Shown here: positions 24,154 to 64,000 of the stretch, one piece after another
How the letters are laid out: each line of letters begins with the position of its first letter
Position numbering within the stretch: position 1 is the first letter of the stretch
Source: Candidatus Multivoradales bacterium
GTDB taxonomy: Bacteria; Acidobacteriota; Thermoanaerobaculia; Multivoradales; J023
Length of the DNA stretch: 64,000 nt
Direction of reading: 5' to 3'
Assembly (NCBI GenBank): GCA_965248925.1
Contig: CBDFLE010000005.1
Span: 896,001-960,000 of the forward strand
Made by a program: the position numbers and the translations under genes
The notes under the pieces: generated by a model
Database searches by the model: none
Told to the model about the DNA's origin: nothing
Seen by the model: the letters and a program-made list of their open reading frames with translations, nothing else

Positions 24154-24197
24154 CCGTGGCAGTACAGGGTGGAGATGGTAAGCTTGTGCTCGGTCAT
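24154..24197 (-). pseudogene. 5' stub of a SymE-like gene cut by the IS3 element
   Basis: AGGAGG then ATG ACC GAG CAC AAG CTT ACC ATC TCC ACC CTG TAC (MTEHKLTISTLY), matching MTEHKLTISALY at 31659. Confidence 0.85.
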
Positions 24198-24377
24198 TGG
24201 GAATCCTCCTCTTCCGGAGAGCCGCCGGAACCCTGTCAACAGGGAATATGCGCTCTACGTGACTTTCCTGAACTTCATTTACGGTCTATGTGGATATACG
24301 TTATACGAGTATTTCAAACAAGAGGATATCCACCCTCGCCCACCGAAAACGAAAACTGCCCTTAGAATTGGGGAACG

Positions 24378-24749
24378 ATGCCGAGGAAAAAGCAGCCACC
24401 CACCGACTTTGGACATCGCCTGCCTGCCATCCGCAAGGCCAAAGGCTTCACCCAGGTTCAGCTTGCAGATGTGACCGGGACCACCCAGCGGGCGATCTCC
24501 TACTACGAAACGGAGGCCGGCTATCCACCGATGCCGGCGGTCGTCGCTCTGGCCCAGGCCCTCGGTGTTTCTGCCGATGAGTTGATGGGTCTCAAACAGC
24601 CCCAGGTCGACCTGCTCCAGGACGATCCCGAAACCCGCAGGATGTGGAAGAAGTTTCAGCAGGTCCGGACTCTGCCCGAGAGGGACCAACGAGCCGTAAT
24701 TCGGCTCGTCAATTCGCTTGCCTCAGCGAGTCAGCCCGCCACGGAGTAG
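24378..24749 (+). CDS. XRE-family HTH regulator (allele A)
   Basis: IRKAKGFTQVQLADVTGTTQRAISYYE...LAQALGVSADELMG. Confidence 0.9.
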   Translation: MPRKKQPPTDFGHRLPAIRKAKGFTQVQLADVTGTTQRAISYYETEAGYPPMPAVVALAQALGVSADELMGLKQPQVDLLQDDPETRRMWKKFQQVRTLPERDQRAVIRLVNSLASASQPATE

Positions 24750-24836
24750 GCTACGTCTGCTCTTTCGCTGGGGTTTTTCATGAGAACCCGGCCGAAGGCG
24801 AATCTCAAGAAACGGTCGATACCGGACCCCACGAAG

Positions 24837-25067
24837 TTACGCTTCGTCTCGAAGATGTAGATCGACGTTGATAGCGCACTCTTTCACGGTCCGCACAGCC
24901 GTTTTCCAATCCGCCCAAACAGCGGGATCAGCTGTCCCTTCATCCTGCAAGAGGCTCATACCTCCAAGCAGGGCGCCGAGATCGTCCGACTCGGTGCGTT
25001 GGTAGATCTCTTCGAGGAAAGCGAACATCGCGGCATAGGCTTCCCGTGTAGTTAAAGTATCCCCCAT
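24837..25067 (-). CDS. Putative immunity protein for toxin A
   Basis: Small acidic ORF immediately downstream of toxin A, with GGAG before ATG 25067. Confidence 0.75.
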   Translation of the reverse strand: MGDTLTTREAYAAMFAFLEEIYQRTESDDLGALLGGMSLLQDEGTADPAVWADWKTAVRTVKECAINVDLHLRDEA

Positions 25068-25075
25068 TGCCACTC

Positions 25076-26161
25076 CTATTGGCCCGACAGGCCGGTTGTT
25101 GAGTCAAAGATTCGCGGTGTCTGGTTCAACCCGCCGTTTTTGATGACTCCATTGCGGCTCTGGACCCAAACCTGAGTGCCGTCGTCCAGTGTTCGTGCAG
25201 ACCAGACATTACCGAACTTGTCCGTTCCAAGGGCCGTTGAAGCGTCATCTGCGACCCCTTGCAGGAGCTTTCGGTTTGCTGGCGTGTCAGCGAGGTGACC
25301 AGGGGCGTCTCGGAAAATGTGCTTGATCTGACCAGGCTTACTGGGAAACCTCGCTGCCCCCCTTGGTACTCCGCGCGATCCCCGCTGAAAGACCTTACCA
25401 AGTCGAGCAAAGACAGCAGACAGCTTTGACCCAACATTAGGAAGTGCTTTTCGAGTAGCAGCGACAACAAGAGTCGTCTCGTCGACCGGCGAGAGAAGAC
25501 TGACGGCAAACAGCGCCCCCATACCTCGAGCATTGATGTTCTCGATGTATTGCTCCTGGGTGATCTCGCCCCGCATCAAGCGCTGTATATCTTGTTCGAG
25601 AGCCATCGCCGCACGGCTTTCTCGCCCATTGGAGTCGATCTCGTTGATCGGGTTGTTGGCCCCGTAGGTATAGCGGTTCCAGCTTCCAGGCGCGCTGACC
25701 TTGGCGGACCTCGCCGGATCGACACTCAAGAACCGCCCTAGCACTGGGCTACAATACCGAGCGTGCATGTAGTCCAGCTCGCTCCTCGCCCCGGTCCCGG
25801 TCTTGTCCCGCTCATGGCCAGTGAATTTCAGCTGAATCTCGTCAGCCTCCGCGCTGGTCGCCTCTTGACCAAAGGGAAAGTAGTTGTGCAACGCCACCTG
25901 CTGTCCGCCTCGGGTGAAGGGGACAGCCCGACGCGGTTTCCAGCTTGAGAGCTGGTAACCCTCTATGCCTGTTCTACTTAAGCCTCGCTCGGCCCTACTG
26001 CCGGCGGGGTCTTGGTGCTCGAAGGTCCAGAGGCGAGTTTCGGCGTAGCTCGACTCGGAGATCGGCGCGATCGCTGTTGCCGGCATCGTCACCGCCAGGA
26101 GCGCGACGACCAGCCCGAGCGCCATCGTCCAAGTGCTTCTTCCTTTAGCTGCCTGCCTCAT
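25076..26161 (-). CDS. Mini-Rhs toxin A: constant leader + Rhs-associated core + variable C-terminal domain
   Basis: Core YFPFG...KFTGHERD...LDYMHARY...GRFLSVDP...NRYTYGANNPINEIDSNG, then a unique tip (HIFRDAPGHLADTPANR...). Confidence 0.85.
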   Translation of the reverse strand: MRQAAKGRSTWTMALGLVVALLAVTMPATAIAPISESSYAETRLWTFEHQDPAGSRAERGLSRTGIEGYQLSSWKPRRAVPFTRGGQQVALHNYFPFGQEATSAEADEIQLKFTGHERDKTGTGARSELDYMHARYCSPVLGRFLSVDPARSAKVSAPGSWNRYTYGANNPINEIDSNGRESRAAMALEQDIQRLMRGEITQEQYIENINARGMGALFAVSLLSPVDETTLVVAATRKALPNVGSKLSAVFARLGKVFQRGSRGVPRGAARFPSKPGQIKHIFRDAPGHLADTPANRKLLQGVADDASTALGTDKFGNVWSARTLDDGTQVWVQSRNGVIKNGGLNQTPRIFDSTTGLSGQ

Positions 26162-26618
26162 GCCGGGCCATTCTACGCCGCGGGTGGCGCTCGAAGACAG
26201 CGGCTAAAGGAGGAAGGGTGGTTGGTGCGGAGGCGGGATGCGGTTTTCTTAGGCCGCTTTCTTCGGGCAGTGGGTGTTTTCTTAGGTCGTTTTCGTCGGG
26301 CTGGTCGTCGGAGCGAGCGCGGGTCTTTCCGGCAGTTTGGTGCCGGCGGCGCAGCCGCCAAACCAATCTGCACGTTGGGGGCGTGGTGGCGGCGGGGCCG
26401 GAGCCGAGCACGGCGACCGCAGGGCGCCGCGCGCAGGGTACGGAGGCCACGACGCAGGGCGGGTCTTGGGAGGAGGATGGGGAGCCCCCTTGAGGGGGCG
26501 GACGGGGCCGGGCCGAGCCGTCGCAGTGCTGGCTGGTGGATCTCGGCAAGGAGGCCCGGAGCGGGGCGTGGTTCCGAAGCCGCTGACCATCGCAGGCTCG
26601 CGGAGTGCTCACCCCAAG

Positions 26619-26644
26619 TTTCCATAATGCACGCGTTATGGAAA
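26619..26644. other. dif/cer-like palindrome TTTCCATAA-tgcacgcg-TTATGGAAA, a candidate tyrosine recombinase site (also 34473..34498, 43971..43996, 53295..53320, 63884..63909)
   Basis: Perfect 9-bp inverted arms with an 8-bp spacer and a CATAA/TTATG core as in Xer sites; identical in all five copies. Confidence 0.7.
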
Positions 26645-27052
26645 GGCCGTAGGCCCGGAGCCGGGGCGTGTGAGGGCCAGGTCGGATAGGGCGCGCACTA
26701 TCGGACAGCGACCCATGCAAGCCGCGTGACACCTGGGAGGTCCGAGGAGGGGCCCAGGTGGCGCGCGGCTTGCGGAGCGGCTGGCCCGTGCCCGGAGGGA
26801 GCGCAGCGACCGGAGGGACACACGCCCCGGCGGAGCTTGGGGCGAGCTTTCGGAGACTCTTTTCTTGGACTACCTGAAGCCTCGCTCCGGGCCGGTGATC
26901 GGAGGGCTCAGGTGGTGGATCGCAGATGCTCGGGCCGGGGCGGGCAGGGGTGACAAAACAAACACCGCCGAGGGCTGCGTGGCCCGCGAGCGGAGGACGG
27001 CGCAGCCGGCCGCAGCGCGGGACCCGCAGACCCGGACCGCTTCGGGCGGGGG

Positions 27053-28126
27053 TCAGTCCTCCGCCTCGGTCTCGACTACATCGAGTAAGTCCTCGGCGGT
27101 CACTTCATCGCTGCCGTCTTCTTCTGTCGGCGGTGCCACCCGCCGCCCTAGCTTCGCGCCCGGATGGGTTGCCGAGTGGATCGACTTCAGTTTGCGGATC
27201 GATACCTGAGTGTAAATCTGCGTCGTCTCCAGCTTGGCATGGCCGAGCATCTGCTGAATGAAGCGGATATCCGCACCACCTTCGAGCATCAGCGTCGCCA
27301 TCGTGTGGCGGAAGAGATGGCAAGCGCCCGACTTGCCGAGATCGGCGGCGAGCACGTAGCCGCGCACCAGCTGACTCATTCGCGACGGAGCAAACGGCGT
27401 CCCCTGGTTGGTGAGAAAGAGCGTCCCGCCGTCCGGCTCGACCATCAGCGACGGCCGTACCTCAGTGACGTAGCGATCGATCCAGGCCAGCGCCCGCTCG
27501 CCGATCGGGATCATCCAGTCTTTCCGCCCCTTGCCCTGGCGCACCATCACCGTTCCGCGTTCGATGTCGAGATCGTAACGGCCGAGGCCGATCAGCTCAG
27601 CCCGGCGCATGCCGGTCGAGTAGAAGACTTCAAGGATCGTCCGGTCGCGCATCCCGAGTGGGTCGGCGGTGTCGGGCTGGTTGAGCACCTGGTCGGCTTC
27701 CGAGGCGGTCAGCACCGCCGCCGGCAACCGGTGCTCCAGCTTCGGCAGCTCCAGCTCCGAGGCCGGGTTGTAGAGCAGGTGGTTGGCCCGAGTCGCCCAC
27801 TTGAAGAAAGCCCGCACCGGCACCAGCCGCGAGTGCTGCGCCCGGAAAGACAGCGGCCGCCCGTCCCCAGGCTTGCGGTAGTGGTAGAGCCACCTGGCGT
27901 AGCGCTCCAGGATCGGCTTGGTCACTTCCGACGGCCGCGACACCCCACGCTCTTCACACCATGCGATGAGAAACGAGAGGTATAGATGCCGGTTCTCAAC
28001 GGTTCGTGGAGAGTAGTTCTTGATCGCCATCCACTCCAGGTACTGACCCGCCATCACCGCGAAGCCCCGAGGGTCGGTTGGATTGCCCGGCAAGAGGCGG
28101 ATCTTGCGCTCGCCACGGCGCGGCAT
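27053..28126 (-). CDS. Tyrosine recombinase (XerC/D-like), unit B1
   Basis: Catalytic set TGMRRAEL, GKG, HLFRH, LGHA, TQIYT; ATG overlaps the primase stop (TGATG). Confidence 0.95.
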   Translation of the reverse strand: MPRRGERKIRLLPGNPTDPRGFAVMAGQYLEWMAIKNYSPRTVENRHLYLSFLIAWCEERGVSRPSEVTKPILERYARWLYHYRKPGDGRPLSFRAQHSRLVPVRAFFKWATRANHLLYNPASELELPKLEHRLPAAVLTASEADQVLNQPDTADPLGMRDRTILEVFYSTGMRRAELIGLGRYDLDIERGTVMVRQGKGRKDWMIPIGERALAWIDRYVTEVRPSLMVEPDGGTLFLTNQGTPFAPSRMSQLVRGYVLAADLGKSGACHLFRHTMATLMLEGGADIRFIQQMLGHAKLETTQIYTQVSIRKLKSIHSATHPGAKLGRRVAPPTEEDGSDEVTAEDLLDVVETEAED

Positions 28127-31100
28127 CAGGGCCCCTCGACCGCCGCCGAGCCGCCGGTACGACGCCCAGATTTACGACATGACGGGCCGTTTTCTCGCAC
28201 CCCCTTATATGCGTTTTTTGCCGAAACCCCACGATTTCCGGCCGAAGTCGTTGATTCTGCTTGGGAAACTGCACCCCGACCACCCCCCGACACCCCCCCG
28301 ACTTGGGGCCGACTTGGCCCCGACTTCTCAGCTTCAGACCCCGACTTCTTTTCGTCGTACCTGAGTGTTTCGACCTCGATCAGCCCCGGCAGTCGCGGCC
28401 GCTCCGGTTCGTCGCTGGCCACGTAAACCAGCTCGTAGACAAAGCTCTGCCCCCGCCCGCCCTGATGCACCAGCAGATACTCAAACTCCTCAAGACGGCG
28501 TAGGTGCAGCTTCAGCTGCGTATTGCCCCAGCCGGTGTGCTCGCGCACCGCCCGCCGGCTGAAACGGTAGTCCGGCCGATCCATCGCCAGCGCCTCACAG
28601 GCTTCGCTGACCATCTCGTCGATCAGCCCCAGCAGGCGCCGCGTCTGCGGCGGCAGCTCATCGAGCGAGCGCCCCAAGACTTCGTGCGCCAGGCGGTTGG
28701 CTGTCTCGATGTCTGTGGCCACCACTTCGACGTACTCCACCTCTCGCCCGTCGACCACCGCCAGCTTCACCTCTCGCTGGTATTGATGCAAAAGAGCAAT
28801 CACGTCGATCAGCGTCAGGTACTTCTCGTGGTCCCGGCGGGTGCGGATTTGCGTATCGAGAAAGGTAAGTTCCGGAGCAAAGGGATTGACCACCGCCAGC
28901 GGCCGCAGCAGCCGCTGCGCGTTCTGGTGCAGCGCCATCACCCCGTCGCGCCGGGTGCGCGAGAGTAGCCCCTCCAGCGTCCGCCGCTGCCGCTGCAGCC
29001 GGTGAATCGCCCGCGTCTGCTCTCGCGCCTCGTCCACCGAGAGCACCAAGCAGCGATTCAAAAGCTCTTCATCGATGTCGATTGCCGTGGTCGTCAAGAA
29101 GATCATCACCGGCCCTTCGACGTGGTACTCGTGCGTCACCAGCTTGCCCGTTGAAGCATCCTTGCCGGTCGAGGCAATCGTCAGCTCGCCCTCCGACTGA
29201 AGCAGCTTCAAGGCGTAGCTAGCCCGCTCGGCCCCCTCCTCCTCGACGATCGCCAGGATCTTGTGCTGCAGATCCGTTTCGCCCATGTAGAACAGCGATT
29301 GCCCGGTCATCGCCGAGTACTTCACTTGCTGCTCACCTGGCATCAGCGACAGCACCGCCTCCATCAGCGCCGACTTGCCGGCCGCCGAGCTCGACTGCAC
29401 CACCACCGCCAAAGGCCGATCCAGAAAGCGCGAGGTGGCCGCCATATAGCCCATGAGCTTGTTGGTTTCCTCGCCCACCACCCCGCAGCGCTCGAAGTCC
29501 GCGAGGATGCGCACCAAGAGATCTGGTGAGCGCAGCAGCTCAAGCGCCGCTTCCTTCTCTCCCTCTGACAGCTCCACCGCCGTCGACTGCGGCTCGAGTG
29601 CTGAGCGGATCTGCTCGTCCTGCAGCTCCTCGAGCTTCAGCAGCACCTTGCCCAGATCCTTCTTGACCACCTTCTCATCGACCCCCAGTTCAGCGGCTGC
29701 CGCCCGCTGAAACACCGCGCGCGGCCGCGCAGCGTAGAGATCGAAGGTATCGACGTGGAAGGCGTCGCCGCGCGACGCCAAAACATTGACCTTGAGCACG
29801 TCGTAAGCCAGGTTCTTCGGCAGACCGCGAATCCTGTAGCGACGATCGCCCAGCGACAGCACCACCTCCTGATCGCGCACTTCCGCCGGCATATCTGGCG
29901 GAGGCGGGGCGGGCAATGGGGAGGCTTCGGCCGGGGCGACCGGCGCCAATACCGCCTCTGCGGCGGTATTAGGCCGTGTCGATTGCTCTGCCGGCGGTGC
30001 CAATGAGCCCACTATGGGCTCGTTGCCCAGTTTCACGTCGGGCGCCTTGCCTTTCCCGAGCCACTGTGCTTTGCGGATCACCACCCCCAGCGACTTCGCG
30101 GCTGGCGTCACCTTCAGCGCATATTCGTTGGCGTCCATGCCGCGCGGAAAGTGAATGCGATAGGCGTCGATCCCGGCACCCACCAGCTTCTCGGCCAGCT
30201 TCCCGGCGGCCTTCTCGCCGGCATCGTCCCGGTCGTAGGCGATCAGCACCCGCTCGACTCCGTGGCCACCGAAGGCTGCCAGCATCTCCGCGGTGAAACC
30301 CTGGATGCCGTAGGCGCTGGTGACGTTGCGGTAGCCCGCGCACCAGAAGGTCAGAGCGTCGATCAGCGACTCGCAAAGGATGATCTCGGTCGAGGCCACC
30401 AGAGCTTCCGCATTGAAGATCCCTCGATGCGGACCCGGCAGATAGAGATGCAAGGGTGTCCCCTTGCGAAGATTCAGTGTGATCTTTCGGCCGTAGATCT
30501 CCACCACCTGGCCTGTTGAATCGAAGACCGGAAAGACGATCGAGCCATTGAAGTGCTCATGACCCGACTTGCGCAGCACGCCGAGCTTCTGCAATCGACC
30601 CCGCATCTCCTTACCCGCCTTCAGCTGCTTCGATGGCAGTCGATAGCCCAGCGTCCGGTTGGCGAAGCCAAGCCTGAAATGCTCGATCATCTCCGGGTGC
30701 TTCAGCCCTCTGCTCTCCAGATAAGCCAGCGCCTCCGGGCTCTCCTTCAAAGCCTCGTGGTAGTAGCCGACGACCTGACCGAGTAGCTCCGCGTCCTCTG
30801 CTTCCGCCACCACCGGCGAAGGCAGGGCCGGCGCCGAAGGCAACGCCTCTGCGACCGCCTCCGCCGGCAGATCCGAGCGCAGCAGCTCGACCGCGTGGCG
30901 AAACGAAACCCCGCGATCTCGCATCACCCAATCGATCACCGACCCGCCCGCCTGGCAGGCGCCCAGGCAATGCCACAGATTCTTCTTCGGCGAGATCACC
31001 AGCGACGGCTCGCGGTCGTCGTGAAACGGGCAGAGCCCCAGCAGGTCCGCCCCGTGGCGTTTCAGTTTCACCCCACGGGCCAGGGCCAGGCGCTCCACCG

Positions 31101-31149
31101 ATACTTCTCGCTTTAGTCGCTCTACCTCGGCTTCTGGAATCCTGCTCAC
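28126..31149 (-). CDS. DnaG-like primase (CHC2 Zn finger + TOPRIM) fused to a P-loop NTPase/helicase-like domain, unit B1
   Basis: CPFHDD...WHCLGAC; CESLIDAL...YDRDDAG; SSSAAGKS (Walker A-like), LAIVEEE (Walker B-like), EELLNR. Start reassigned to GTG 31149 (GTGA overlap). Confidence 0.9.
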   Translation of the reverse strand: MSRIPEAEVERLKREVSVERLALARGVKLKRHGADLLGLCPFHDDREPSLVISPKKNLWHCLGACQAGGSVIDWVMRDRGVSFRHAVELLRSDLPAEAVAEALPSAPALPSPVVAEAEDAELLGQVVGYYHEALKESPEALAYLESRGLKHPEMIEHFRLGFANRTLGYRLPSKQLKAGKEMRGRLQKLGVLRKSGHEHFNGSIVFPVFDSTGQVVEIYGRKITLNLRKGTPLHLYLPGPHRGIFNAEALVASTEIILCESLIDALTFWCAGYRNVTSAYGIQGFTAEMLAAFGGHGVERVLIAYDRDDAGEKAAGKLAEKLVGAGIDAYRIHFPRGMDANEYALKVTPAAKSLGVVIRKAQWLGKGKAPDVKLGNEPIVGSLAPPAEQSTRPNTAAEAVLAPVAPAEASPLPAPPPPDMPAEVRDQEVVLSLGDRRYRIRGLPKNLAYDVLKVNVLASRGDAFHVDTFDLYAARPRAVFQRAAAAELGVDEKVVKKDLGKVLLKLEELQDEQIRSALEPQSTAVELSEGEKEAALELLRSPDLLVRILADFERCGVVGEETNKLMGYMAATSRFLDRPLAVVVQSSSAAGKSALMEAVLSLMPGEQQVKYSAMTGQSLFYMGETDLQHKILAIVEEEGAERASYALKLLQSEGELTIASTGKDASTGKLVTHEYHVEGPVMIFLTTTAIDIDEELLNRCLVLSVDEAREQTRAIHRLQRQRRTLEGLLSRTRRDGVMALHQNAQRLLRPLAVVNPFAPELTFLDTQIRTRRDHEKYLTLIDVIALLHQYQREVKLAVVDGREVEYVEVVATDIETANRLAHEVLGRSLDELPPQTRRLLGLIDEMVSEACEALAMDRPDYRFSRRAVREHTGWGNTQLKLHLRRLEEFEYLLVHQGGRGQSFVYELVYVASDEPERPRLPGLIEVETLRYDEKKSGSEAEKSGPSRPQVGGVSGGGRGAVSQAESTTSAGNRGVSAKNAYKGVRENGPSCRKSGRRTGGSAAVEGP

Positions 31150-31370
31150 TGTGCCGCCCCCGACTCCACCGGAGTAAGCACCAAACGATCCTGCTCGACC
31201 TCCACCCGCAGCCTCTCCCCGCAGCGAAACCCCGCCGCTTCTAGCCAAGCACCCCGCATCCGCACAAACGGCACAAGCCGCACCGAGCACGGGCCGTTGA
31301 CGTAGTGCGGCGCACGGGGCTCGTGCAGGGTAGAGATCGTCAGATATCGCTCAGCTCTCGGCTCAGACAC
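31146..31370 (-). CDS. SymE-like (AbrB-fold) small protein 2, allele B
   Basis: VPFVRMRGAWLEAAGFRCGERLRVEVEQDRLVL. Confidence 0.85.
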   Translation of the reverse strand: MSEPRAERYLTISTLHEPRAPHYVNGPCSVRLVPFVRMRGAWLEAAGFRCGERLRVEVEQDRLVLTPVESGAAQ

Positions 31371-31659
31371 AGGCCACTCCCGCCAGGCGACCCGCCGAGA
31401 CCTCCTCGATCCGGCCGATCTGATCCGCCGGCACCCACACCACCGGCTGCATTTCCCTCTCCTCCTCGCCCTCTTCCACCCGCGTCACCACCAAACGCCC
31501 GTCACCCACGACGTCCACCCGCACCTGGGCTCCAGGATAGAAGCCGGCGTCGCGCATCCACAGCCCCGCCAGCTGCAGCAGCGGTAGCTGCGCGGACTTG
31601 GGGAAGGCGTGCCAACCGTGGCGGTACAGGGCGGAGATGGTTAGCTTGTGCTCGGTCAT
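31363..31659 (-). CDS. SymE-like small protein 1, allele B
   Basis: LPLLQLAGLWMRDAGFYPGAQVRVDV; GGAGG ribosome-binding site. Confidence 0.8.
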   Translation of the reverse strand: MTEHKLTISALYRHGWHAFPKSAQLPLLQLAGLWMRDAGFYPGAQVRVDVVGDGRLVVTRVEEGEEEREMQPVVWVPADQIGRIEEVSAGRLAGVACV

Positions 31660-31828
31660 CGGTCTGCCTCCAAATTTCTTCAGTTAACTCAGATGCAACT
31701 CATCTGTGCTCTACAGTACCAATCGGTTGCATTGGTGTCAAGCCTGCAATGTCTTGACGCATACCTTCGGGTTGCCTAGAATTAACTCAGGACGGAAAAA
31801 GGCGTACAAGAAAGGACTGGAAGGTTCT
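31660..31828. promoter_or_regulatory. Divergent symE/xre control region with operator-like inverted repeats
   Basis: AT-richer segment containing CAGATG-caact-CATCTG (31690..31706) and ACCAAT-cggttgc-ATTGGT (31718..31736). Confidence 0.55.
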
Positions 31829-32200: not shown

Positions 32201-32499
32201 TCCAATATAGACGGAAACCCGGCTCTCACCGGGCTCGATTAATACAGCTCGCTGATTTCAGTTGGCTTGCGGCGAAACGCCTTCTGGCACCTCCGCAGCA
32301 GGCCGATGGACTCATCCGAGACGCACGTACCCGGCAGTCCTACGCCGCTACTTGAGCCCAGATGCACGAAAGCCCGGCATCAGCCGGACTTTCTGCGAAA
32401 CGGTTGGCACCTGGCCGCTCAGTGAGTCGAAGCTTCGTAAACCCAAGCCTTCTTGCTTCGGCTTTGAGAGCCATCATCGGCCTCAGCCCAGGTAGAACC

Positions 32500-32937: not shown

Positions 32938-32959
32938 TTTTATAGCCTCCCGGTTTCAG

Positions 32960-48547: not shown

Positions 48548-48549
48548 CC

Positions 48550-49481: not shown

Positions 49482-49549
49482 AAGCCCTTCTCGTTTCACG
49501 GGCCTACGCAACACGACTGGCGCTGACGAAAAGGCTCAGATACACAGTA

Positions 49550-49567: not shown

Positions 49568-49608
49568 CCCTATGAAACGGCCTGGGCCTTTTCCGGTCGC
49601 CTCGACCG

Positions 49609-50136: not shown

Positions 50137-50137
50137 C

Positions 50138-56225: not shown

Positions 56226-56644
56226 CCAATCCTCCTTTCAAGGAGGCTGGAATACCCCAATTGTGAGGAGCGCGCTACCGTCGAACTCCGCCGTGGCCAG
56301 GATTCCGATCCAATCTGACCACCCATTCCGATCGACCCGGAAAAGTGGTCACTTTCGATCGGAATCGATGGTCAGATTCCGTTGGAATCACTGGTCACTT
56401 TCAATCGGAATCGGTGGTCGGTTTCCGTCGGTGCAGGCAGACTCTTTTCTTGGACTACCTGAAGCCTCGCTCCGGGCCGGTGATCGGAGGGCTCAGGTGG
56501 TGGATCGCAGATGCTCGGGCCGGGGCGGGCAGGGGTGACAAAACAAACACCGCCGAGGGCTGCGTGGCCCGCGAACGGAGGACGGCGCAGCCGGCCGCAG
56601 CGCGGGACGCGCAGACCCGGACCGCTTCGGGTGGCGGGCGGGGG

Positions 56645-57718
56645 TCAGTCCTCCGCCTCGGTCTCGACTACATCGAGTAAGTCCTCGGCGGTCACTTCAT
56701 CGCTGCCGTCTTCTTCTGTCGGCGGTGCCACCCGCCGCCCTAGCTTCGCGCCCGGATGGGTTGCCGAGTGGATCGACTTCAGTTTGCGGATCGATACCTG
56801 AGTGTAAATCTGCGTCGTCTCCAGCTTGGCATGGCCGAGCATCTGCTGAATGAAGCGGATATCCGCACCACCTTCGAGCATCAGCGTCGCCATCGTGTGG
56901 CGGAAGAGATGGCAAGCGCCCGACTTGCCGAGATCGGCGGCGAGCACGTAGCCGCGCACCAGCTGACTCATTCGCGACGGAGCAAACGGCGTCCCCTGGT
57001 TGGTGAGAAAGAGCGTCCCGCCGTCCGGCTCGACCATCAGCGACGGCCGTACCTCAGTGACGTAGCGATCGATCCAGGCCAGCGCCCGCTCGCCGATCGG
57101 GATCATCCAGTCTTTCCGCCCCTTGCCCTGGCGCACCATCACCGTTCCGCGTTCGATGTCGAGATCGTAACGGCCGAGGCCGATCAGCTCAGCCCGGCGC
57201 ATGCCGGTCGAGTAGAAGACTTCAAGGATCGTCCGGTCGCGCATCCCGAGCGGGTCGACGGTGTCGGGCTGGTTGAGCACCTGGTCGGCTTCAGAGGCGG
57301 TCAGCACCGCCGCCGGCAGCCGGTGCTCCAGCTTCGGTAGCTCCAGCTCCGAGGCCGGGTTGTAGAGCAGGTGGTTGGCCCGAGTCGCCCACTTGAAGAA
57401 AGCCCGCACCGGCACCAGCCGCGAGTGCTGCGCCCGGAAAGACAGCGGCCGCCCGTCCCCAGGCTTGCGGTAGTGGTAGAGCCACCTGGCGTAGCGCTCC
57501 AGGATCGGCTTGGTCACTTCCGACGGCCGCGACACCCCACGCTCTTCACACCATGCGATGAGAAACGAGAGGTATAGATGCCGGTTCTCAACGGTTCGTG
57601 GAGAGTAGTTCTTGATCGCCATCCACTCCAGGTACTGGCCGGCCATCACCGCGAAACCCCGAGGGTCGGTTGGATTGCCCGGCAAGAGGCGGATCTTGCG
57701 CTCGCCACGGCGCGGCAT
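56645..57718 (-). CDS. Tyrosine recombinase, unit C2
   Basis: Identical to 44412..45485. Confidence 0.95.
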   Translation of the reverse strand: MPRRGERKIRLLPGNPTDPRGFAVMAGQYLEWMAIKNYSPRTVENRHLYLSFLIAWCEERGVSRPSEVTKPILERYARWLYHYRKPGDGRPLSFRAQHSRLVPVRAFFKWATRANHLLYNPASELELPKLEHRLPAAVLTASEADQVLNQPDTVDPLGMRDRTILEVFYSTGMRRAELIGLGRYDLDIERGTVMVRQGKGRKDWMIPIGERALAWIDRYVTEVRPSLMVEPDGGTLFLTNQGTPFAPSRMSQLVRGYVLAADLGKSGACHLFRHTMATLMLEGGADIRFIQQMLGHAKLETTQIYTQVSIRKLKSIHSATHPGAKLGRRVAPPTEEDGSDEVTAEDLLDVVETEAED

Positions 57719-60700
57719 CAGGCCCCCTCGACCGCCGCCGAGCCGCCGGTACGACGCCCAGGTTTACGACATGACGGGCCGTTTTCTCGCTCCCCCTTAT
57801 ATGCGTTTTTTGCCGAAACTCCACGATTTCCGGCCGAAGTTGTTGATTCTGCTTGGGAAACTGCACCCCGACCACCCCCCGACACCCCCCCGACTTGGGG
57901 CCGACTTGGCCCCGACTTCTCAGCTTCAGACCCCGACTTCTTTTCGTCGTACCTGAGTGTTTCGACCTCGATCAGCCCCGGCAGTCGCGGCCGCTCCGGC
58001 TCGTCGCTGGCCACGTAAACCAGCTCGTAGACAAAGCTCTGCCCCCGCCCGCCCTGATGCACCAGCAGATACTCAAACTCCTCAAGACGGCGTAGGTGCA
58101 GCTTCAGCTGCGTATTGCCCCAGCCGGTGTGCTCGCGCACCGCCCGCCGGCTGAAACGGTAGTCCGGCCGATCCATCGCCAGCGCCTCACAGGCTTCGCT
58201 GACCATCTCGTCGATCAGCCCCAGCAGGCGCCGCGTCTGCGGCGGCAGCTCATCGAGCGAGCGCCCCAAGACTTCGTGCGCCAGGCGGTTGGCTGTCTCG
58301 ATGTCTGTGGCCACCACTTCGACGTACTCCACCTCTCGCCCGTCGACCACCGCCAGCTTCACCTCTCGCTGGTATTGATGCAAAAGAGCAATCACGTCGA
58401 TCAGCGTCAGGTACTTCTCGTGGTCCCGGCGGGTGCGGATTTGCGTATCGAGAAAGGTAAGTTCCGGAGCAAAGGGATTGACCACCGCCAGCGGCCGCAG
58501 CAGCCGCTGCGCGTTCTGGTGCAGCGCCATCACCCCGTCGCGCCGGGTGCGCGAGAGTAGCCCCTCCAGCGTCCGCCGCTGCCGCTGCAGCCGGTGAATC
58601 GCCCGCGTCTGCTCTCGCGCCTCGTCCACCGAGAGCACCAAGCAGCGATTCAAAAGCTCTTCATCGATGTCGATTGCCGTGGTCGTCAAGAAGATCATCA
58701 CCGGCCCTTCGACGTGGTACTCGTGCGTCACCAGCTTGCCCGTTGAAGCATCCTTGCCGGTCGAGGCAATCGTCAGCTCGCCCTCCGACTGAAGCAGCTT
58801 CAAGGCGTAGCTAGCCCGCTCGGCCCCCTCCTCCTCGACGATCGCCAGGATCTTGTGCTGCAGATCCGTTTCGCCCATGTAGAACAGCGATTGCCCGGTC
58901 ATCGCCGAGTACTTCACTTGCTGCTCACCTGGCATCAGCGACAGCACCGCCTCCATCAGCGCCGACTTACCGGCCGCTGAGCTGGACTGCACCACCACCG
59001 CCAGCGGCCGTTCCAGGAAACGCGAGGTCGACGCCAGGTAGCCCATCAGCTTGTTGACCTCCTCGCCCACCACCCCGCAGCGCTCGAAGTCCGCGAGGAT
59101 GCGCACCAAGAGATCTGGTGAGCGCAGCAGCTCAAGCGCCGCTTCCTTCTCTCCCTCTGACAGCTCCACCGCCGTCGACTGCGGCTCGAGTGCTGAGCGG
59201 ATCTGCTCGTCCTGCAGCTCCTCGAGCTTCAGCAGCACCTTGCCCAGATCCTTCTTGACCACCTGCTCCTCGACCCCCAGCTCAGCGGCTGCCGCCCGCT
59301 GAAACACCGCCCGCGGCCGCGCCGCGTAGAGATCGAAAGTGTCGACGTGGAAGGCGTCGCCCCGCGACGCCAGGACGTTGACCTTGAGCACGTCGTAGGC
59401 CAGATTCTTCGGCAGACCGCGAATGCGGTAGCGGCGATCGCCGAGCGACAAGACCACCTCCTGGTCGCGCACCTCAGCCGGCATATCTGGCGGAGGCGGT
59501 GCGGGCAGTGGGGAGGCTTCGGCCGGGGCGGGCAGTGCCAATACCGCCTCTCCGGCGGTATTCGATGATGTCAGCTGCTCTGTTGGTGGAGCCATTACCG
59601 CCTCTGCGGCTGTGTTTGGCCGTACCGTTGGCGCGATTAGGCCAGCTGTTGGCCCAAACCCCGGTTTCACGCCCGGCGGCTTGCCTTTGCCGAGCCACTG
59701 TGCTTTGCGGATCACCACCCCCAGCGACTTCGCCGCCGGGGTCACCTTCAGCGCGTACTCGTTGGCATCCATGCCACGCGGAAATTGGATTCGGTAGCAG
59801 TCGATCCCGGCACCCACCAGCTTCTCGGCCAGCTTCCCGGCGGCCTTCTCGCCGGCATCGTCACGGTCGTAGGCGATCAGCACCCGCTCGACTCCGTGGC
59901 CACCGAAGGCTGCCAGCATCTCCGCGGTGAAACCCTGGATGCCGTAGGCGCTGGTGACGTTACGGTAACCCGCACACCAGAAAGTCAGAGCGTCGATCAG
60001 CGACTCGCAGAGGATGATCTCGGTCGAGGCCACCAGAGCTTCCGCATTAAAGATCCCTCGATGTGGACCCGGCAGATAGAGATGCAAGGGCGTCCCCTTG
60101 CGAAGATTCAGTGTGATCTTGCGCCCGTAGATCTCCACCACCCGGCCACCCTTGAAGACCGGAAAGACGATCGAGCCGTTGAAGTGCTCATGACCCGACT
60201 TGCGCAGCACGCCGAGCTTCTGCAATCGACCCCGCATCTCCTTACCCGCCTTCAGCTGCTTCGATGGCAGTCGATAGCCCAGCGTCCGGTTGGCGAAGCC
60301 AAGCCTGAAATGCTCGATCATCTCCGGGTGCTTCAGCCCTCTGCTCTCCAGATAAGCCAGCGCCTCCGGGCTCTCCTTCAAAGCCTCGTGGTAGTAGCCG
60401 ACGACCTGGCCGAGCAGCTCCGCGTCCTCGACGTCCGCCACCACCGGCGAAGGCAGAGCCGGCGCCGAAGGCCGCGCCTCAGTGACCGCCGCCGCCGGCA
60501 GATCCGAGCGCAGCAGCTCGACCGCGTGGCGAAACGAAACCCCGCGATCTCGCATCACCCAATCGATCACCGAGCCACCCGCCTGGCAGGCGCCCAGGCA
60601 GTGCCACAGGTTCTTCTTCGGTGAAATGACGAGAGAGGGCTCCTTGTCGTCGTGAAACGGACAGAGGCCGAGTAGATCTGCCCCGTGCCGCTTCAGCTTC

Positions 60701-60780
60701 ACCCCCCGAGCCTGGGCCAGGCGCTCTACCGACACCTCTCGCTTTAGCCGCTCCACCTCCGCTTCCGGAATCCTGCTCAC
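57718..60780 (-). CDS. Primase/P-loop fusion, unit C2
   Basis: Identical to unit C1. Confidence 0.9.
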   Translation of the reverse strand: MSRIPEAEVERLKREVSVERLAQARGVKLKRHGADLLGLCPFHDDKEPSLVISPKKNLWHCLGACQAGGSVIDWVMRDRGVSFRHAVELLRSDLPAAAVTEARPSAPALPSPVVADVEDAELLGQVVGYYHEALKESPEALAYLESRGLKHPEMIEHFRLGFANRTLGYRLPSKQLKAGKEMRGRLQKLGVLRKSGHEHFNGSIVFPVFKGGRVVEIYGRKITLNLRKGTPLHLYLPGPHRGIFNAEALVASTEIILCESLIDALTFWCAGYRNVTSAYGIQGFTAEMLAAFGGHGVERVLIAYDRDDAGEKAAGKLAEKLVGAGIDCYRIQFPRGMDANEYALKVTPAAKSLGVVIRKAQWLGKGKPPGVKPGFGPTAGLIAPTVRPNTAAEAVMAPPTEQLTSSNTAGEAVLALPAPAEASPLPAPPPPDMPAEVRDQEVVLSLGDRRYRIRGLPKNLAYDVLKVNVLASRGDAFHVDTFDLYAARPRAVFQRAAAAELGVEEQVVKKDLGKVLLKLEELQDEQIRSALEPQSTAVELSEGEKEAALELLRSPDLLVRILADFERCGVVGEEVNKLMGYLASTSRFLERPLAVVVQSSSAAGKSALMEAVLSLMPGEQQVKYSAMTGQSLFYMGETDLQHKILAIVEEEGAERASYALKLLQSEGELTIASTGKDASTGKLVTHEYHVEGPVMIFLTTTAIDIDEELLNRCLVLSVDEAREQTRAIHRLQRQRRTLEGLLSRTRRDGVMALHQNAQRLLRPLAVVNPFAPELTFLDTQIRTRRDHEKYLTLIDVIALLHQYQREVKLAVVDGREVEYVEVVATDIETANRLAHEVLGRSLDELPPQTRRLLGLIDEMVSEACEALAMDRPDYRFSRRAVREHTGWGNTQLKLHLRRLEEFEYLLVHQGGRGQSFVYELVYVASDEPERPRLPGLIEVETLRYDEKKSGSEAEKSGPSRPQVGGVSGGGRGAVSQAESTTSAGNRGVSAKNAYKGERENGPSCRKPGRRTGGSAAVEGA

Positions 60781-60782
60781 CC

Positions 60783-61004
60783 CTACCGCCCTCCCCAAGC
60801 CGGCGTCTCATCGTCGAGCTCTCGCCGCACCACCTGCAGCCGCCCATCTTGCCCCGACACCCGCACCCCATCCCCAGGAGCAAATCCCGCCTCTGCCAGC
60901 CACGAGCCCACCAGCAGCAGGAGCGGCGATGGCCGCTCCAGAGCCGGCGGCGCCGGCCAACCGGGGCGATAGAAGCCCGACACCCGAAGTTTCTGTTCAG
61001 ACAT
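60783..61004 (-). CDS. SymE-like protein 2, allele C
   Basis: Identical to 48550..48771. Confidence 0.8.
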   Translation of the reverse strand: MSEQKLRVSGFYRPGWPAPPALERPSPLLLLVGSWLAEAGFAPGDGVRVSGQDGRLQVVRRELDDETPAWGGR

Positions 61005-61209
61005 CCGCTGGCTCCACCACCAGGCGATCCGACTCGACCACCACCCGCACCTTCGAGCCAATCTCAAATCCCGCCGATTCCAGCCACCGGCCTGAGAGCC
61101 GCAGGAAGGGCACCGGATGCTGTCGCCGAGACTGGCGTAGTGAGCGATAGCCCGAAGGGAATGATGAGGCTGGGTAGAGGCTAGAGACGGTCAAAGTGCG
61201 GTCGATCAT
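60997..61209 (-). CDS. SymE-like protein 1, allele C
   Basis: Identical to 48764..48976. Confidence 0.85.
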   Translation of the reverse strand: MIDRTLTVSSLYPASSFPSGYRSLRQSRRQHPVPFLRLSGRWLESAGFEIGSKVRVVVESDRLVVEPADV

Positions 61210-61324
61210 GGGTTCCTCCTCCGGGCGGTGCAGGCCGCCGTAAACTGTCAATGGACTCTTTCGTCATGATTATTATAGACTAATAAGTACTGACAATACA
61301 AGACACAAGAGAGGAGAACCTACA

Positions 61325-61714
61325 ATGACCTTGCAGGCCAATACCATCGCCGAGGTCGCTATGGATCAGTTCGCTGGAAGACTACGAGAGCATAGGGAGA
61401 GCCGGAAGTTGACCCAGGCTCGGCTAGCTGAGCTTCTGGAGGTCAGCCCTAGAGTCTACAACCGCTGGGAAACCGCTGCCGCGGCGCCCCGCCTAGACAC
61501 TGTCGTCAGGATTGCTGACATCTTAGAGGTCAGTATCGATGAACTAGTCGGACGCAAGGAACCTCAGGAGCCGCAGTTCCGGCTCCACAACCCCAAGCTT
61601 CATCAGCTGTACCAGGAAATCGACCGCCTCTCTGACGAGGACCAGCAGGCCCTCGTCATCCTCCTCGACTCCCTCGTCAAGCGGTCGCAGATGGGGCAGG
61701 TTCTGGCGGGCTGA
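61325..61714 (+). CDS. XRE regulator, allele C
   Basis: Identical to 49092..49481. Confidence 0.9.
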   Translation: MTLQANTIAEVAMDQFAGRLREHRESRKLTQARLAELLEVSPRVYNRWETAAAAPRLDTVVRIADILEVSIDELVGRKEPQEPQFRLHNPKLHQLYQEIDRLSDEDQQALVILLDSLVKRSQMGQVLAG

Positions 61715-61841
61715 AAGCCCTTCTCGTTTCACGGGCCTACGCAACACGACTGGCGCTGACGAAAAGGCTCAGATACACAGTAGCCCGGCCAAAGCCGGGC
61801 CCCTATGAAACGGCCTGGGCCTTTTCCGGTCGCCTCGACCG

Positions 61842-62369
61842 CTATGGAGCCATCCGCCTAAGAGTCGGCTCCAACCAAGTGGCGTTCGCGTTGTCGGACC
61901 AGGCGTCACGCAGCATGCGAATATCATCTGCCCATCCCTGGTAGTGATCGTCGAGCGCAGTCATGAAAGCCTTGGTACCGCCAATCACCGCATGCATTTC
62001 GTGTGAGATCAAGACCCCCCAGCGCCCGTCTTTGGAGTACAAGGCATTTTCCAACGTTAGGTGCCGGTCACAATACTCTTGATATGAGGGAATGCTGCAT
62101 GACCAATGCCCCCACTCTCTGTCGAGAAAAGCAAGTTCTTCGGACTCGACGACCGACAGGAAGAAGGTTCTCTCGCCAACTCTTTGAATGGCGCCTAAGA
62201 CGGCCGAATACTGTTCTATGGTCAGATGGCATCCGTCCGTCGGATAGAAGACACGGCCAACTTCGAACTCCTGGCCGAAAGGCCATGTGAACGCATCATT
62301 GGTCTTGAAAACACGTCGCCAAGCTGACCGTATCGCCGGTAGATCGGTTGTTTCAATCACGCCAGTCAT
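61842..62369 (-). CDS. Putative immunity protein C (copy 2)
   Basis: Identical to 49609..50136. Confidence 0.75.
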   Translation of the reverse strand: MTGVIETTDLPAIRSAWRRVFKTNDAFTWPFGQEFEVGRVFYPTDGCHLTIEQYSAVLGAIQRVGERTFFLSVVESEELAFLDREWGHWSCSIPSYQEYCDRHLTLENALYSKDGRWGVLISHEMHAVIGGTKAFMTALDDHYQGWADDIRMLRDAWSDNANATWLEPTLRRMAP

Positions 62370-62370
62370 C

Positions 62371-63426
62371 TCACTGCTCCAGGAACTTGATTTTGCGGAG
62401 ACCCTTTTCAATCCCGTGAACATCTACGGTCGGTGGCCCGCCACTCTTCGACGTCGCTCGGAACGTCACCGTCGCCCCATTAGGCCCACGCGCAGTGAAG
62501 ATGCCCGGTCTGACTTCTGTCACCGGGTTCGACCCCCTCAAGTTGTCGAATAGCTTGCGAGCGTCGCCCGCGTCCCCGGCAACTTCTCGAATGCCCTTGC
62601 TCTTGCCCGCGCGCCCAAGAGAAGTCAGTCCCCCCCTTGCGCCCGCTCTTGCTGCGCCAGCAGCAGCAGCTGATTTTTTCAGTTTCTTTGCATTTCTAAC
62701 GGCTCCTACGAGTTTCACTCCCCTACCGGCAACCTTCAAGAGTCCTAGACCTGTGGCACCGGCCACAGCCCCAGTGACGAAAGCCCCGGCTACGCCTGTT
62801 GTGAGCTCTTCTCCTGAAAGCGCGTTGCTCGCAATTTGAATCCCAACATCTACGACTCCGCCAAGAAATGCAGTTACCAGAAAGCCAAGCCTTCCGTCAG
62901 GGTCTACCTGGTTGATTGGACTGTTGCTCACGTAAGAGAAGCGATTCCAACTCTGTGGTGAGGACCGGCTACCCAGAGATGGATCGACACTCAAGAACCG
63001 CCCCACCACCGGGCTGCAATGCCGAGCATGCATATAGTCCAGCTCGCTCCTCACCCCGGTCCCGGTCTTGTCTCGCTCGTGCCCGGTGAACTTCAGCACA
63101 ACCTCATCTTGTGCGGCGCTGGTCGCCTCTTGACCAAACGGGTAGTAGTTGTGCAACGCCACCTGCTGTCCGCCTCGGGTGAAGGGGACAGCCCGACGCG
63201 GTTTCCAGCTTGAGAGCTGGTAACCCTCTATGCCTGTTCTACTTAAGCCTCGCTCGGCCCTACTGCCGGCGGGGTCTTGGTGCTCGAAGGTCCAGAGGCG
63301 AGTTTCGGCGTAGCTCGACTCGGAGATCGGCGCGATCGCTGTTGCCGGCATCGTCACCGCCAGGAGCGCGACGACCAGCCCGAGCGCCATCGTCCAAGTG
63401 CTTCTTCCTTTAGCTGCCTGCCTCAT
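62371..63426 (-). CDS. Mini-Rhs toxin C (copy 2)
   Basis: Identical to 50138..51193. Confidence 0.85.
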   Translation of the reverse strand: MRQAAKGRSTWTMALGLVVALLAVTMPATAIAPISESSYAETRLWTFEHQDPAGSRAERGLSRTGIEGYQLSSWKPRRAVPFTRGGQQVALHNYYPFGQEATSAAQDEVVLKFTGHERDKTGTGVRSELDYMHARHCSPVVGRFLSVDPSLGSRSSPQSWNRFSYVSNSPINQVDPDGRLGFLVTAFLGGVVDVGIQIASNALSGEELTTGVAGAFVTGAVAGATGLGLLKVAGRGVKLVGAVRNAKKLKKSAAAAGAARAGARGGLTSLGRAGKSKGIREVAGDAGDARKLFDNLRGSNPVTEVRPGIFTARGPNGATVTFRATSKSGGPPTVDVHGIEKGLRKIKFLEQ

Positions 63427-64000
63427 GCCGGGCCATTCTACGCCGCGGGTGGCGCTCGAAGACAGCGGCTAAAGGAGGAAGGGTGGTTGGTGCGGAGGCG
63501 GGATGCGGTTTTCTTAGGCCGCTTTCTTCGGGCAGTGGGTGTTTTCTTAGGTCGTTTTCGTCGGGCTGGTCGTCGGAGCGAGCGCGGGTCTTTCCGGCAG
63601 TTTGGTGCCGGCGGCGCAGCCGCCAAACCAATCTGCACGTTGGGGGCGTGGTGGCGGCGGGGCCGGAGCCGAGCACGGCGACCGCAGGGCGCCGCGCGCA
63701 GGGTACGGAGGCCACGACGCAGGGCGGGTCTTGGGAGGAGGATGGGGAGCCCCCTTGAGGGGGCGGACGGGTCCGGGCCGAGCCGTCGCAGTGCAAGTCG
63801 GTGGATCTCGGCAAGGAGGCCAAGAGCGGGGCGTGCTTCCGAAGCCGCTGACCTTCGACGGCCACCAACGTGCTCGCCCCAAGTTTCCATAATGCACGCG
63901 TTATGGAAAGGCCGTAGGCCCGGAGCCGGGGCGTGTGAGGGCCAGGTCGGATAGGGCGCGCACTATCGGACAGCGACCCATGCAAGCCGCGTGACATCTG

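Follow-up and report, generated by a model that had tools for sequence, protein, structure and literature searches.

Tandem primase- and recombinase-encoding units behind rhs genes of a Multivoradales bacterium are candidate mobile elements carrying exchangeable toxin ends

The stretch of 64,000 nucleotides analysed here (the window; C5:896001-960000, in a parent genome of 7.98 Mb, 6 contigs and 62.5% G+C assigned to Candidatus Multivoradales and called G000 below) contains a tandem array of units, each of which combines the 3' end of an rhs toxin gene and a putative immunity gene with genes for a primase and for an XerC-type tyrosine recombinase. Each unit is probably an integrated copy of a small mobile element able to replicate and integrate by itself. 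This reading is built on the anatomy of the units, the in-frame fusion of their cargo to the target gene, a sharp and fixed junction, intact and partly identical copies at several loci, an association with polymorphic toxin genes that crosses phyla, and a relative deposited as a plasmid. From these observations we infer excision, circular replication, a site for the recombinase and passage between cells.

Self-comparison of the window for repeats yielded five copies with start-to-start spacings of 7854, 7854, 9324 and 12233 bp. They occupy positions 25916-64000 on the minus strand as four whole units, head-to-tail, followed by the beginning of a fifth. Once their insertion sequences (IS) are subtracted, the third and fourth units (E3 and E4) measure 7683 and 7692 bp, and the estimate of ~7.7-7.9 kb per unit made in the initial annotation of this DNA was thus accurate. 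Read along the minus strand, a unit consists of an Rhs core with its toxin tip, a small open reading frame (ORF), a divergent xre gene, two symE genes, a primase-nucleoside triphosphatase (primase-NTPase) gene, the gene of the XerC-type recombinase, a spacer of ~0.9 kb and a leader. The payloads along the window array are A (an orphan), B, B, C and C. This gene order and this payload series had been proposed from the letters and translations, and they agree with the Pfam, NCBIfam and repeat analyses. The 20-nt word at the leader/core junction has 5 exact matches in the window, for 0.00 expected by chance. At its left edge, position 24154, the array abuts a truncated and inverted copy of an IS3-family element. 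The features, in window positions, are the following:

22925-24153: IS3-family copy, truncated and inverted, bounding the array on the left; 95.6-96.5% identical to 42329-43364 and 51653-52688
24378-24749, plus strand: xre-type helix-turn-helix (HTH) gene of the distal orphan cassette A (HTH_3, E 8.9e-12)
24837-25073, minus strand: 78-aa ORF directly behind tip A, putative immunity gene by position only, without family match
25076-25915, minus strand: cargo A, the Rhs-associated core from TRGGQQ with toxin tip A (TIGR03696 at aa 94-179)
25076-26161, minus strand: whole ORF, cargo A in frame behind the E1 leader
25900-25927, minus strand: candidate 28-bp recombination site at the leader/cargo junction, an imperfect 11-6-11 palindrome
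33754-33781, 41608-41635, 50932-50959 and 63165-63192: the other candidate 28-bp junction sites
25916-33769, minus strand: element E1 (7854 bp)
E1, backbone: leader 25916-26161; spacer 26162-27052; XerC-type recombinase 27053-28126; primase-NTPase 28126-31149
E1, regulatory genes: SymE-family ORFs 31146-31370 and 31363-31659; xre 31706-32200 (plus strand)
E1, cargo: putative immunity gene B 32500-32937; cargo B, core and tip, 32960-33769
26619-26644: AT-rich, near-perfect palindrome in the E1 spacer
~26631-26704: the only spacer block conserved in relatives (64-76 nt, ~80% identity to genomes G016 and G009)
33770-41623, minus strand: element E2 (7854 bp), the E1 parts shifted by 7854
E2, parts: recombinase 34907-35980; primase 35980-39003; xre 39560-40054 (plus strand); putative immunity gene B 40354-40791; cargo B 40814-41623
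41624-50947, minus strand: element E3 (9324 bp)
E3, backbone: leader 41624-41869; IS3-family insertion 42329-43969; recombinase 44412-45485; primase 45485-48565
E3, other parts: diverged SymE-like ORFs ~48574-48982; xre 49092-49481 (plus strand); putative immunity gene C 49609-50190; cargo C 50138-50947
50948-63180, minus strand: element E4 (12233 bp)
E4, backbone: IS3-family insertion 51653-53293; IS21-family insertion 53539-56438; recombinase 56645-57718; primase 57718-60798
E4, other parts: xre 61325-61714 (plus strand); putative immunity gene C 61842-62423; cargo C 62371-63180
63181-64000, minus strand: element E5, beginning only, with leader 63181-63426 and spacer, running on past the window

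The initial annotation predicted that a full-length rhs gene on the minus strand would be found to the right of position 64000, and this gene exists. The array runs on for three elements past the window (E5-E7) and is followed by an rhs of 1685 aa on the minus strand (C5:983795-988852, or L002:3795-8852), the whole of this continuation spanning C5:959181-988852. The protein matches YD_repeat_2x and TIGR03696 (aa 1412-1497), and its homology with the leader ORFs begins at TRGGQQVALHNY, the point where rhs joins the array. Counting an element wherever a recombinase at least 80% identical was detected, the genome contains 14 elements at six rhs loci, with 7 on C5, 1, 3 and 1 on C6, and 1 and 1 on C4. 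All 14 sit in the 3' arrays of rhs genes and are flanked by Rhs-core ORFs; genome-wide, tblastn located 49 copies of the Rhs core, 17 of which belong to open frames of at least 1400 aa. The leader ORFs of the main type are all open (12/12, 365-381 aa), and each of the five in the window opens with ATG followed by a signal-like, hydrophobic leader. In the two diverged elements, C6c and C4b, the cargo begins ~480 aa and ~740 aa upstream of the core, respectively. The recombinase match is full length in 13/14 copies (that of C4b covers residues 1-355) and the primase is unbroken in 13/14, the E7 copy being split by an insertion. The same genome also holds an orphan array free of elements (C6:2440003-2457561), in which a full-length rhs is followed by six core-tip cassettes 1.3-2.6 kb apart, with neither primase nor recombinase between them.

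Several copies are identical or nearly so. E1 and E2 show 100.00% identity across 7854 nt, phased at the junction, and E3 and E4 are 100% identical over 6742 nt and 99.46% over 2591 nt; within the E3/E4 and E6/E7 pairs the differences are limited to later insertions and a few bases. Two copies located at separate rhs loci, C5_E6 and the first element of C6b, C6b_F1, are 100.00% identical over 7542 nt, for rhs bodies 97.5% identical. Identical or near-identical tandem pairs are a frequent observation (B B, C C and A' A' on C5; a a b b in G016, L015-L016; L047, L035, L045, L080, L086 and L088), and they could result from the integration of a dimer or from re-integration beside the parent copy.

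To delimit the element, the leader/core boundary was compared across the 12 main-type leader copies, the diverged C4b and C6c being left out. The 240-nt leader is 100.0% identical in 66/66 pairs, whereas the 200 nt of core that follow it have a mean identity of 87.7% (range 81.5-100), with variation beginning within 20 nt of the junction. Since the leader is constant and the core becomes variable right at the junction, the core is the variable cargo and not a shared target. An element therefore spans one leader/core junction to the next.

A candidate for the recombination site came from G016, a genome of another genus with a primase ~75% identical, where a full-length rhs is followed by four tandem units (two a and two b). 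In that genome leader and toxin are directly joined, the joint coming after residues VPRG. Between G016 junctions that differ both in their left side (rhs or leader) and in their toxin, only 11 nt are common, and these lie within GCTGTTCCCCT-GTCCCA-AGGGGAACAGC, a perfect 11-6-11 palindrome and the sole perfect one in the 7-kb unit. Xer-type recombinases act on sites of ~28 bp with two inverted arms around a 6-8-bp centre, and the junction is a candidate for such a site. A homologous site is present in G009, with arms matching at 8/11, and the homologous place in the elements of the window reads GCTGTCCCCTT-CACCCG-AGGCGGACAGC, with arms matching at 9/11, or at 8/11 with cargo B. The right arm remains similar while encoding Rhs core in G000 and unrelated toxin starts in G016 and G009, which suggests selection acting on the DNA. 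In Fluviicoccus keumensis, 18 nt are common to three junctions and the flanks differ on either side. On a Pseudomonas aeruginosa plasmid and in Escherichia coli MP1, homology between junctions starts abruptly on the upstream side; because the cargo downstream is shared or similar, these two cases would also fit homologous recombination.

The place of the junction depends on the lineage: it falls inside the YD shell in C6c, C4b and Ralstonia, at the start of the core in the window, in mid-core in G011, at DPIGL in E. coli, and at the start of the toxin in G016, G009 and Fluviicoccus. The G016 crossover word has 4 matches in G000, none at a tip junction. The arm pattern CCCCT(5-9 nt)AGGGG was matched 4 times in the 79 loci retained from other genomes (see below), always in one locus, so that conservation of the arms is limited to the close lineage. 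Two other candidate features were discarded. The downstream end of unit homology, at a ...RF.S.DP motif in many lineages, was considered as a breakpoint and rejected, as protein conservation ends there. The signal-peptide leader was rejected as a general feature, a strongly hydrophobic stretch being present in 1/38 displaced ORFs elsewhere.

The ORFs of the unit were assigned with Pfam and NCBIfam profiles, and PHROGs were also searched. The recombinase matches Phage_integrase (PF00589, E 3e-37) and the XerC-type model NF002331 with 427.7 bits, for a cutoff of 371. The primase comprises a CHC2 zinc finger, Toprim and DnaG_N, plus a long C-terminal NTPase part; the latter groups with PF27228, a plasmid replication-protein domain, in a protein atlas, and had no match below E 0.5 among PDB sequences. 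Two ORFs per unit belong to the SymE_toxin family and the divergent xre gene to HTH_3. In the window, the leader ORFs (351-361 aa) are made of a signal-peptide-like leader, a TIGR03696 core (aa 94-179; E 7e-17 to 4e-16 in the A, B and C ORFs, above the 32.5-bit cutoff) and a variable tip. The border between an Rhs core and its toxin is known to carry a PxxxxDPxGL motif for autocleavage. At the corresponding position we read ...NPLNLVDPDGL for tip B, ...NPINEIDSNGR for tip A and ...NPINEIDPNGR for the tip fused to the full-length rhs. The small ORFs behind tips A, B and C encode 78, 145 and 193 aa, and neither they nor the tips significantly match a Pfam or NCBIfam family. Capsid, conjugation and relaxase families were without match among the unit ORFs tested against Pfam and PHROGs, as the initial annotation had also remarked, and the same search gave no packaging, capsid-remodelling, terminase or helper-hijack family.

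The xre/symE/primase-N-terminal region is variable, with 27-49% protein identity between B- and C-type units. This variability suggests differing regulatory specificities, by which several element types could coexist. The spacer holds no ORF conserved in relatives, and its palindrome and conserved block (~26619-26704) are a candidate origin or operator; positions 24000-34500 were without Rfam match at E values up to 0.1. Between xre and the putative immunity ORF we also noticed a GC-rich inverted repeat with a T-run (40221-40248, also 32367-32394), which is kept in G000 (9/11) and in G016 (10/11; unit b, L016:8684, that is 28684 of joined L015-L017). About 100-640 nt around this repeat recur beside other rhs tips (C6:1344023-1344663 and C6:4017229-4017613). 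It may act as a terminator and as a second homology arm for cassette exchange.

Relatives were collected by a scan based on primase alignments with one genome per species, which gave at least 563 confirmed stretches, from which 79 loci were kept. They belong to Acidobacteriota, Pseudomonadota, Myxococcota, Actinomycetota, Chloroflexota, Gemmatimonadota and others, with primase identities of 35-68%, mostly 50-66%. The synteny search that the initial annotation had recommended thus showed the combination of primase, recombinase, xre and Rhs core to recur across phyla. With a narrow core hidden Markov model (HMM) built from G000, an Rhs core was detected upstream of the primase on the same strand at 26/49 testable positions, 12 of these in ORFs of at least 800 aa, and downstream of the recombinase at 24/41. 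Among 30 upstream ORFs picked mechanically as 'first in array' out of 45 listed, 18 contain TIGR03696, 13 RHS repeats, 2 PT-HINT and one a TraI relaxase, the rest being varied. Tandem arrays are frequent among the kept loci. In a primase tree of 68 rows, chosen for a C-terminal match longer than 480 residues, free mixing of the phyla was rejected: rows group mostly by phylum (13 label changes, for a minimum of 10 and a shuffled mean of 35.0). The case for transfer between phyla consequently draws only on high identity and a few misplaced rows.

Individual relatives are informative about the target. In Fluviicoccus keumensis DSM 105135, two elements come after the gene of an RHS protein of 2747 aa whose tip is a YwqJ-type deaminase; both of them contain an endonuclease V gene besides the deaminase tip and an immunity gene, and a GH-E nuclease tip is found at the distal end. 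The endonuclease V gene (L047:8752-9501 and 15880-16629), which lies inside the cargo beside a MORN-repeat ORF and the YwqJ-type deaminase tip, may provide a repair-type protection against a DNA deaminase toxin. Massilia frigida is a further cultured carrier. On the megaplasmid of Ralstonia solanacearum Po82 an element stands behind an rhs of 1736 aa, with a direct repeat of 1081 nt. The P. aeruginosa plasmid (L113) has its element behind TpsA2, a two-partner-secretion gene of the TpsA/CdiA type, and so the target is not only Rhs; on a Salmonella plasmid (L112) the element is near a ShlB/FhaC gene. A record of Lonsdalea populi, NZ_CP072857.1 (L110), was deposited as a circular plasmid of 11,289 bp and contains one and a half units, with genes for XerC, primase, HTH, SymE, nuclease toxins, immunity and a RelE/DinJ pair. 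In these gammaproteobacterial versions (L113, L112, L110) a RelE/ParE-type toxin-antitoxin pair comes directly after xerC.

In E. coli, relatives were detected in 60/5426 complete genomes, at a median of 4 places each, in type VI secretion system vgrG-rhs loci. At a vgrG-rhs locus, two units stand behind rhs in strain MP1 and a single one in strain R12, whose proteins are otherwise the same; the units of strain A36 differ, as does their order. In these strains (L114, MP1; L115, A36; L116, R12) the SymE-family gene points the same way as the HTH gene and is divergent from the primase gene, whereas the SymE ORFs of the window share the orientation of the primase. Remnants beside Rhs fragments are marked in this species by solitary SymE genes.

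From these data the following mechanism can be proposed. The backbone would comprise an xre repressor-like gene, one or two genes for SymE/AbrB-fold proteins, the primase-NTPase, the XerC-type recombinase, the spacer and, in this lineage only, the leader; the cargo would be the 3' end of rhs (core from TRGGQQ and toxin tip) with the putative immunity gene. A unit would excise as a circle in which leader and cargo form one ORF, their junction being the attachment site (attP), and this circle would replicate through the primase-NTPase. The recombinase would then cross attP with its counterpart inside an rhs ORF of the chromosome, and the reading frame would be kept on either side. As a result the full-length Rhs would gain the core, tip and immunity gene of the element, and the previous tip and immunity gene would move behind the leader of the element, where they would still be translatable. 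The displaced pair might be kept so that the cell stays immune to a toxin still made by its kin. Repeated events, together with re-integration and homologous recombination between units, would build the tandem array. Maintenance repression could fall to Xre, and the SymE/AbrB-fold proteins could act either in regulation or as directionality factors. Extended to all carriers, the proposal, which we advance tentatively, is that self-replicating, XerC-encoding integrative mini-plasmids found across phyla are the missing vehicle of the C-terminal displacement of Rhs and TpsA/CdiA toxins: they would insert in frame at a short dif-like site, re-arm the toxin gene and keep the old pair, spread selfishly by a 'kill the non-carrier' strategy, and leave orphan arrays behind.

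Several results weigh against this reading. The G000 palindrome taken alone is not above chance, with 6 matches of at least 9/11 per 8.1 kb for 2.25 in shuffles. The P. aeruginosa junction lacked any palindrome matching at 9/11 or better, the E. coli junctions any matching at 8/11 or better, and the junctions of 12 other locus pairs gave two or three weak cases following no common rule. About half of the testable flanks elsewhere had no Rhs core by the narrow HMM, and 12/30 upstream ORFs had no TIGR03696. The toxin and immunity roles of the cargo are deduced from position. For the G000 locus, no circle, excision product, integration or empty site was seen in the assembled Logan contigs of four runs from one sample. 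At L104, a locus with a solo element, the sole joint that goes back (from 13453 to 5108, with a side of 30 nt) is off the predicted junction. Homologous recombination has also left its mark on the arrays. C5 and C6b have in common a mismatch-free tract made of the element plus the adjoining 651 nt of rhs, which lie upstream of the junction; their alignment spans 8702 nt, and its 109 mismatches are all found upstream of this tract. As the tract reaches into rhs in this way, the copy was probably moved or homogenised by homologous recombination. The one-unit difference between R12 and MP1 shows a single clean switch of backbone type ~700 nt upstream of the junction, over 156 diagnostic columns, and this pattern points to homologous recombination between repeats.

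Other searches bear on mobility in either direction. At L104 the unique cargo was no deeper in coverage than the flank, contig depth being unable to rank the parts. Four one-unit contigs from metagenome bins (L025, L048, L084 and L085; 7.6-8.1 kb) have terminal direct overlaps of 122-141 nt, which would fit a circle or a collapsed tandem array. No empty E. coli site for the distal cassette was found: 6 genomes hold this cassette, the loci inspected have at least one element (3/3), and two more genomes have a primase match. The initial annotation had proposed that each tip is swapped by means of its own element. This claim was partly upheld, by the predicted full-length rhs, the linkage of the elements to rhs, the recurrence of the gene set across phyla, the sharp junction, the G016 palindrome and the circular-plasmid relative; circles, excision and integration were not seen in the contigs of the runs. 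Its image of a chronological archive did not survive as a strict rule. A strict chronological order was rejected on account of the identical pair E1 and E2, which is the most distal one, and of the R12/MP1 backbone crossover; with such a pair at the distal end, the position in the array does not give the age.

We therefore compared the proposed integration by the unit's own recombinase with three other explanations. The units might be plasmid-like circles or repeats entering rhs genes and spreading there by RecA-dependent homologous recombination via their own rhs sequence, the XerC-type enzyme only resolving multimers or excising, without choosing the target. We judge this unlikely, though it is in line with the rhs homology, 200 nt to 3 kb long, at the beginning of the cargo (Ralstonia, G000 with its diverged element, and others), with the 651 nt of rhs in the C5/C6b tract, with the backbone crossover between R12 and MP1, and with the reshuffling of cargo and xre modules between backbones. 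It is at odds with the junctions to different toxins in G016 and G009, where rhs and leader share just 11 nt, inside an 11-6-11 palindrome that is perfect in G016, with the Fluviicoccus junctions, which share just 18 nt, and with the step in leader/core identity at one fixed base in 12/12 copies of G000.

That the array is a fossil, a once-mobile element fixed beside rhs and amplified by unequal crossing-over only, with no role in toxin exchange, is very improbable in our view. The failure to see a circle in the assembled contigs of the four runs, the IS insertions in E3, E4 and E7 and the documented changes of arrays by homologous recombination would be expected of such a relic; a recombinase of full length and an unbroken primase, each in 13/14 copies, would not, and neither would copies 100% identical at two loci with a 2.5% difference between their rhs bodies, a primase that keeps 50-66% identity across phyla and whose tree follows phylum in part only, the deposition of a relative as a circular plasmid, or the variation in unit content among E. 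coli strains at one locus. It is scarcely credible that the elements are phage satellites of the P4 kind or of the phage-inducible chromosomal island (PICI) kind, dependent on a helper phage, with the toxin cassette as an accessory and rhs as a mere attachment site. The association of an integrase, a primase-NTPase and a divergent repressor and the size of 7-8 kb recall satellite cores, and the units lack transfer genes, but the unit ORFs match no packaging, capsid-remodelling or terminase family, 0/201 matching phage records have a relative covering at least 80% of the primase, and in every case the cargo continues the reading frame of the target gene, which goes beyond the use of an attachment site.

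The surroundings of the array add some detail on its history. The left flank of the window (1-22751) is a large glycosyltransferase/methyltransferase cluster for polysaccharide synthesis, unrelated to the array. The IS3-family element carries ORFs with HTH_Tnp_1 and rve, and its transposase has ~30 tblastn matches in the genome. It is inserted at an identical point in E3 and E4, within the AT-rich palindrome of the spacer (E3/E4 homology breaks at 26620), hence the duplication that gave E3 and E4 is later than the insertion. The IS21-family element of E4 encodes an IstA-like protein of 524 aa and an IstB of 332 aa, with 34 tblastn matches per protein genome-wide, and an insertion of IS21-like size at C5:977236-980138 splits the E7 primase.

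If integration by the unit's own recombinase is right, toxin exchange would be an active process encoded by an element, with a definable site and enzyme. A mobile element whose insertion supplies the in-frame end of a host protein would be added to those known, kin-discrimination loci would have a means of rapid turnover, and programmable in-frame replacement of domains might become available as a tool. SymE and XerC genes that annotations place next to Rhs loci would have to be reinterpreted. Tractable carriers are available in the commensal E. coli strains MP1 and R12, F. keumensis DSM 105135 and M. frigida CCM 8695.

That the C-terminal warheads of Rhs and CdiA toxins are replaced, with the displaced cassettes remaining as orphans, has long been known. 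A classical orphan rhs-CT (C-terminal) cassette is silent, has no translation start and depends on recombination with the main gene. To our knowledge, the published model of Rhs/CdiA displacement names no vehicle for the incoming tips. Rhs C-terminal displacement was reportedly described by Jackson et al. in 2009. Arrays of orphan rhs-CT/immunity pairs and Rhs C-terminal displacement are treated in the accessible part of Koskiniemi et al. 2014 (PMC3967940). As in displacement arrays, the loci studied here consist of a full-length rhs followed by displaced core-tip/immunity cassettes in the same orientation, and homologous recombination in the core can re-arm the main gene. They differ by the complete recombinase and primase element between cassettes and, in this lineage, by the start codon and signal peptide that each displaced tip has of its own; the 12/12 main-type displaced cassettes are open ORFs and so fall outside the classical definition.

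The recombinase-associated immunity arrays of Bacteroidales (rAID) were reportedly described by Ross et al. in 2019. Xer-dependent systems by Rhs-linked poly-immunity arrays in Xenorhabdus and Photorhabdus are said, in a 2026 preprint that cites it, to be the subject of Martinkus et al. 2026. The available part of Zhang et al. 2012 (PMC3482391) mentions XerC/D beside polyimmunity loci. In all such arrays Xer-type tyrosine recombinases adjoin arrays of toxin-immunity genes, on the idea that the arrays grow by recombination. By the descriptions accessible for them, however, they collect immunity genes, without primase or in-frame toxin fusion, whereas the units found here keep the toxin together with their own replication gene and recombinase.

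With integrons the elements have in common a tyrosine recombinase and a cassette array growing downstream of one expression point, at which the newest cassette can be the expressed one. Here, by contrast, there is no single IntI/attI and no attC, each cassette has its own recombinase and replicase, and insertion is in frame inside an ORF; the integron-integrase model TIGR02249 gave the unit recombinase 101 bits, below its cutoff of 265. Shufflons change the C-terminal part of a surface or secreted protein by site-specific inversion of resident segments. The recombinase-driven C-terminal change is alike, but the new segments would here arrive on a mobile replicon, the old ones being kept downstream. 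Integrative mobile elements exploiting Xer (IMEX) use the host XerCD at the chromosomal dif. The resemblance to Xer/dif and IMEX, for example the gonococcal genetic island, lies in the candidate 28-bp 11-6-11 site and the XerC-like enzyme, as far as the accessible text on these elements goes (PMC10210955). The present element differs in encoding its own enzyme and in targeting toxin ORFs. P4-like satellites, PICIs and integrative plasmids share with it a core of integrase, primase/replicase and repressor, a variable cargo and an existence both integrated and, probably, circular. They differ in that no capsid or packaging functions were found in the units and in their target, which is here the coding 3' part of a polymorphic toxin gene, not a tRNA or housekeeping gene, the cargo completing the target protein.

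SymE genes beside an Rhs-type toxin have been read as a toxin-antitoxin module, according to the part available of a 2020 paper (PMC7764402). In the full-text literature searched we found no description of a primase and XerC element with toxin tips at Rhs/CdiA genes; supplements were outside this scope, and Martinkus et al. 2026 could overlap. Each of the closest known systems has some of the features that define these elements, and none has all.

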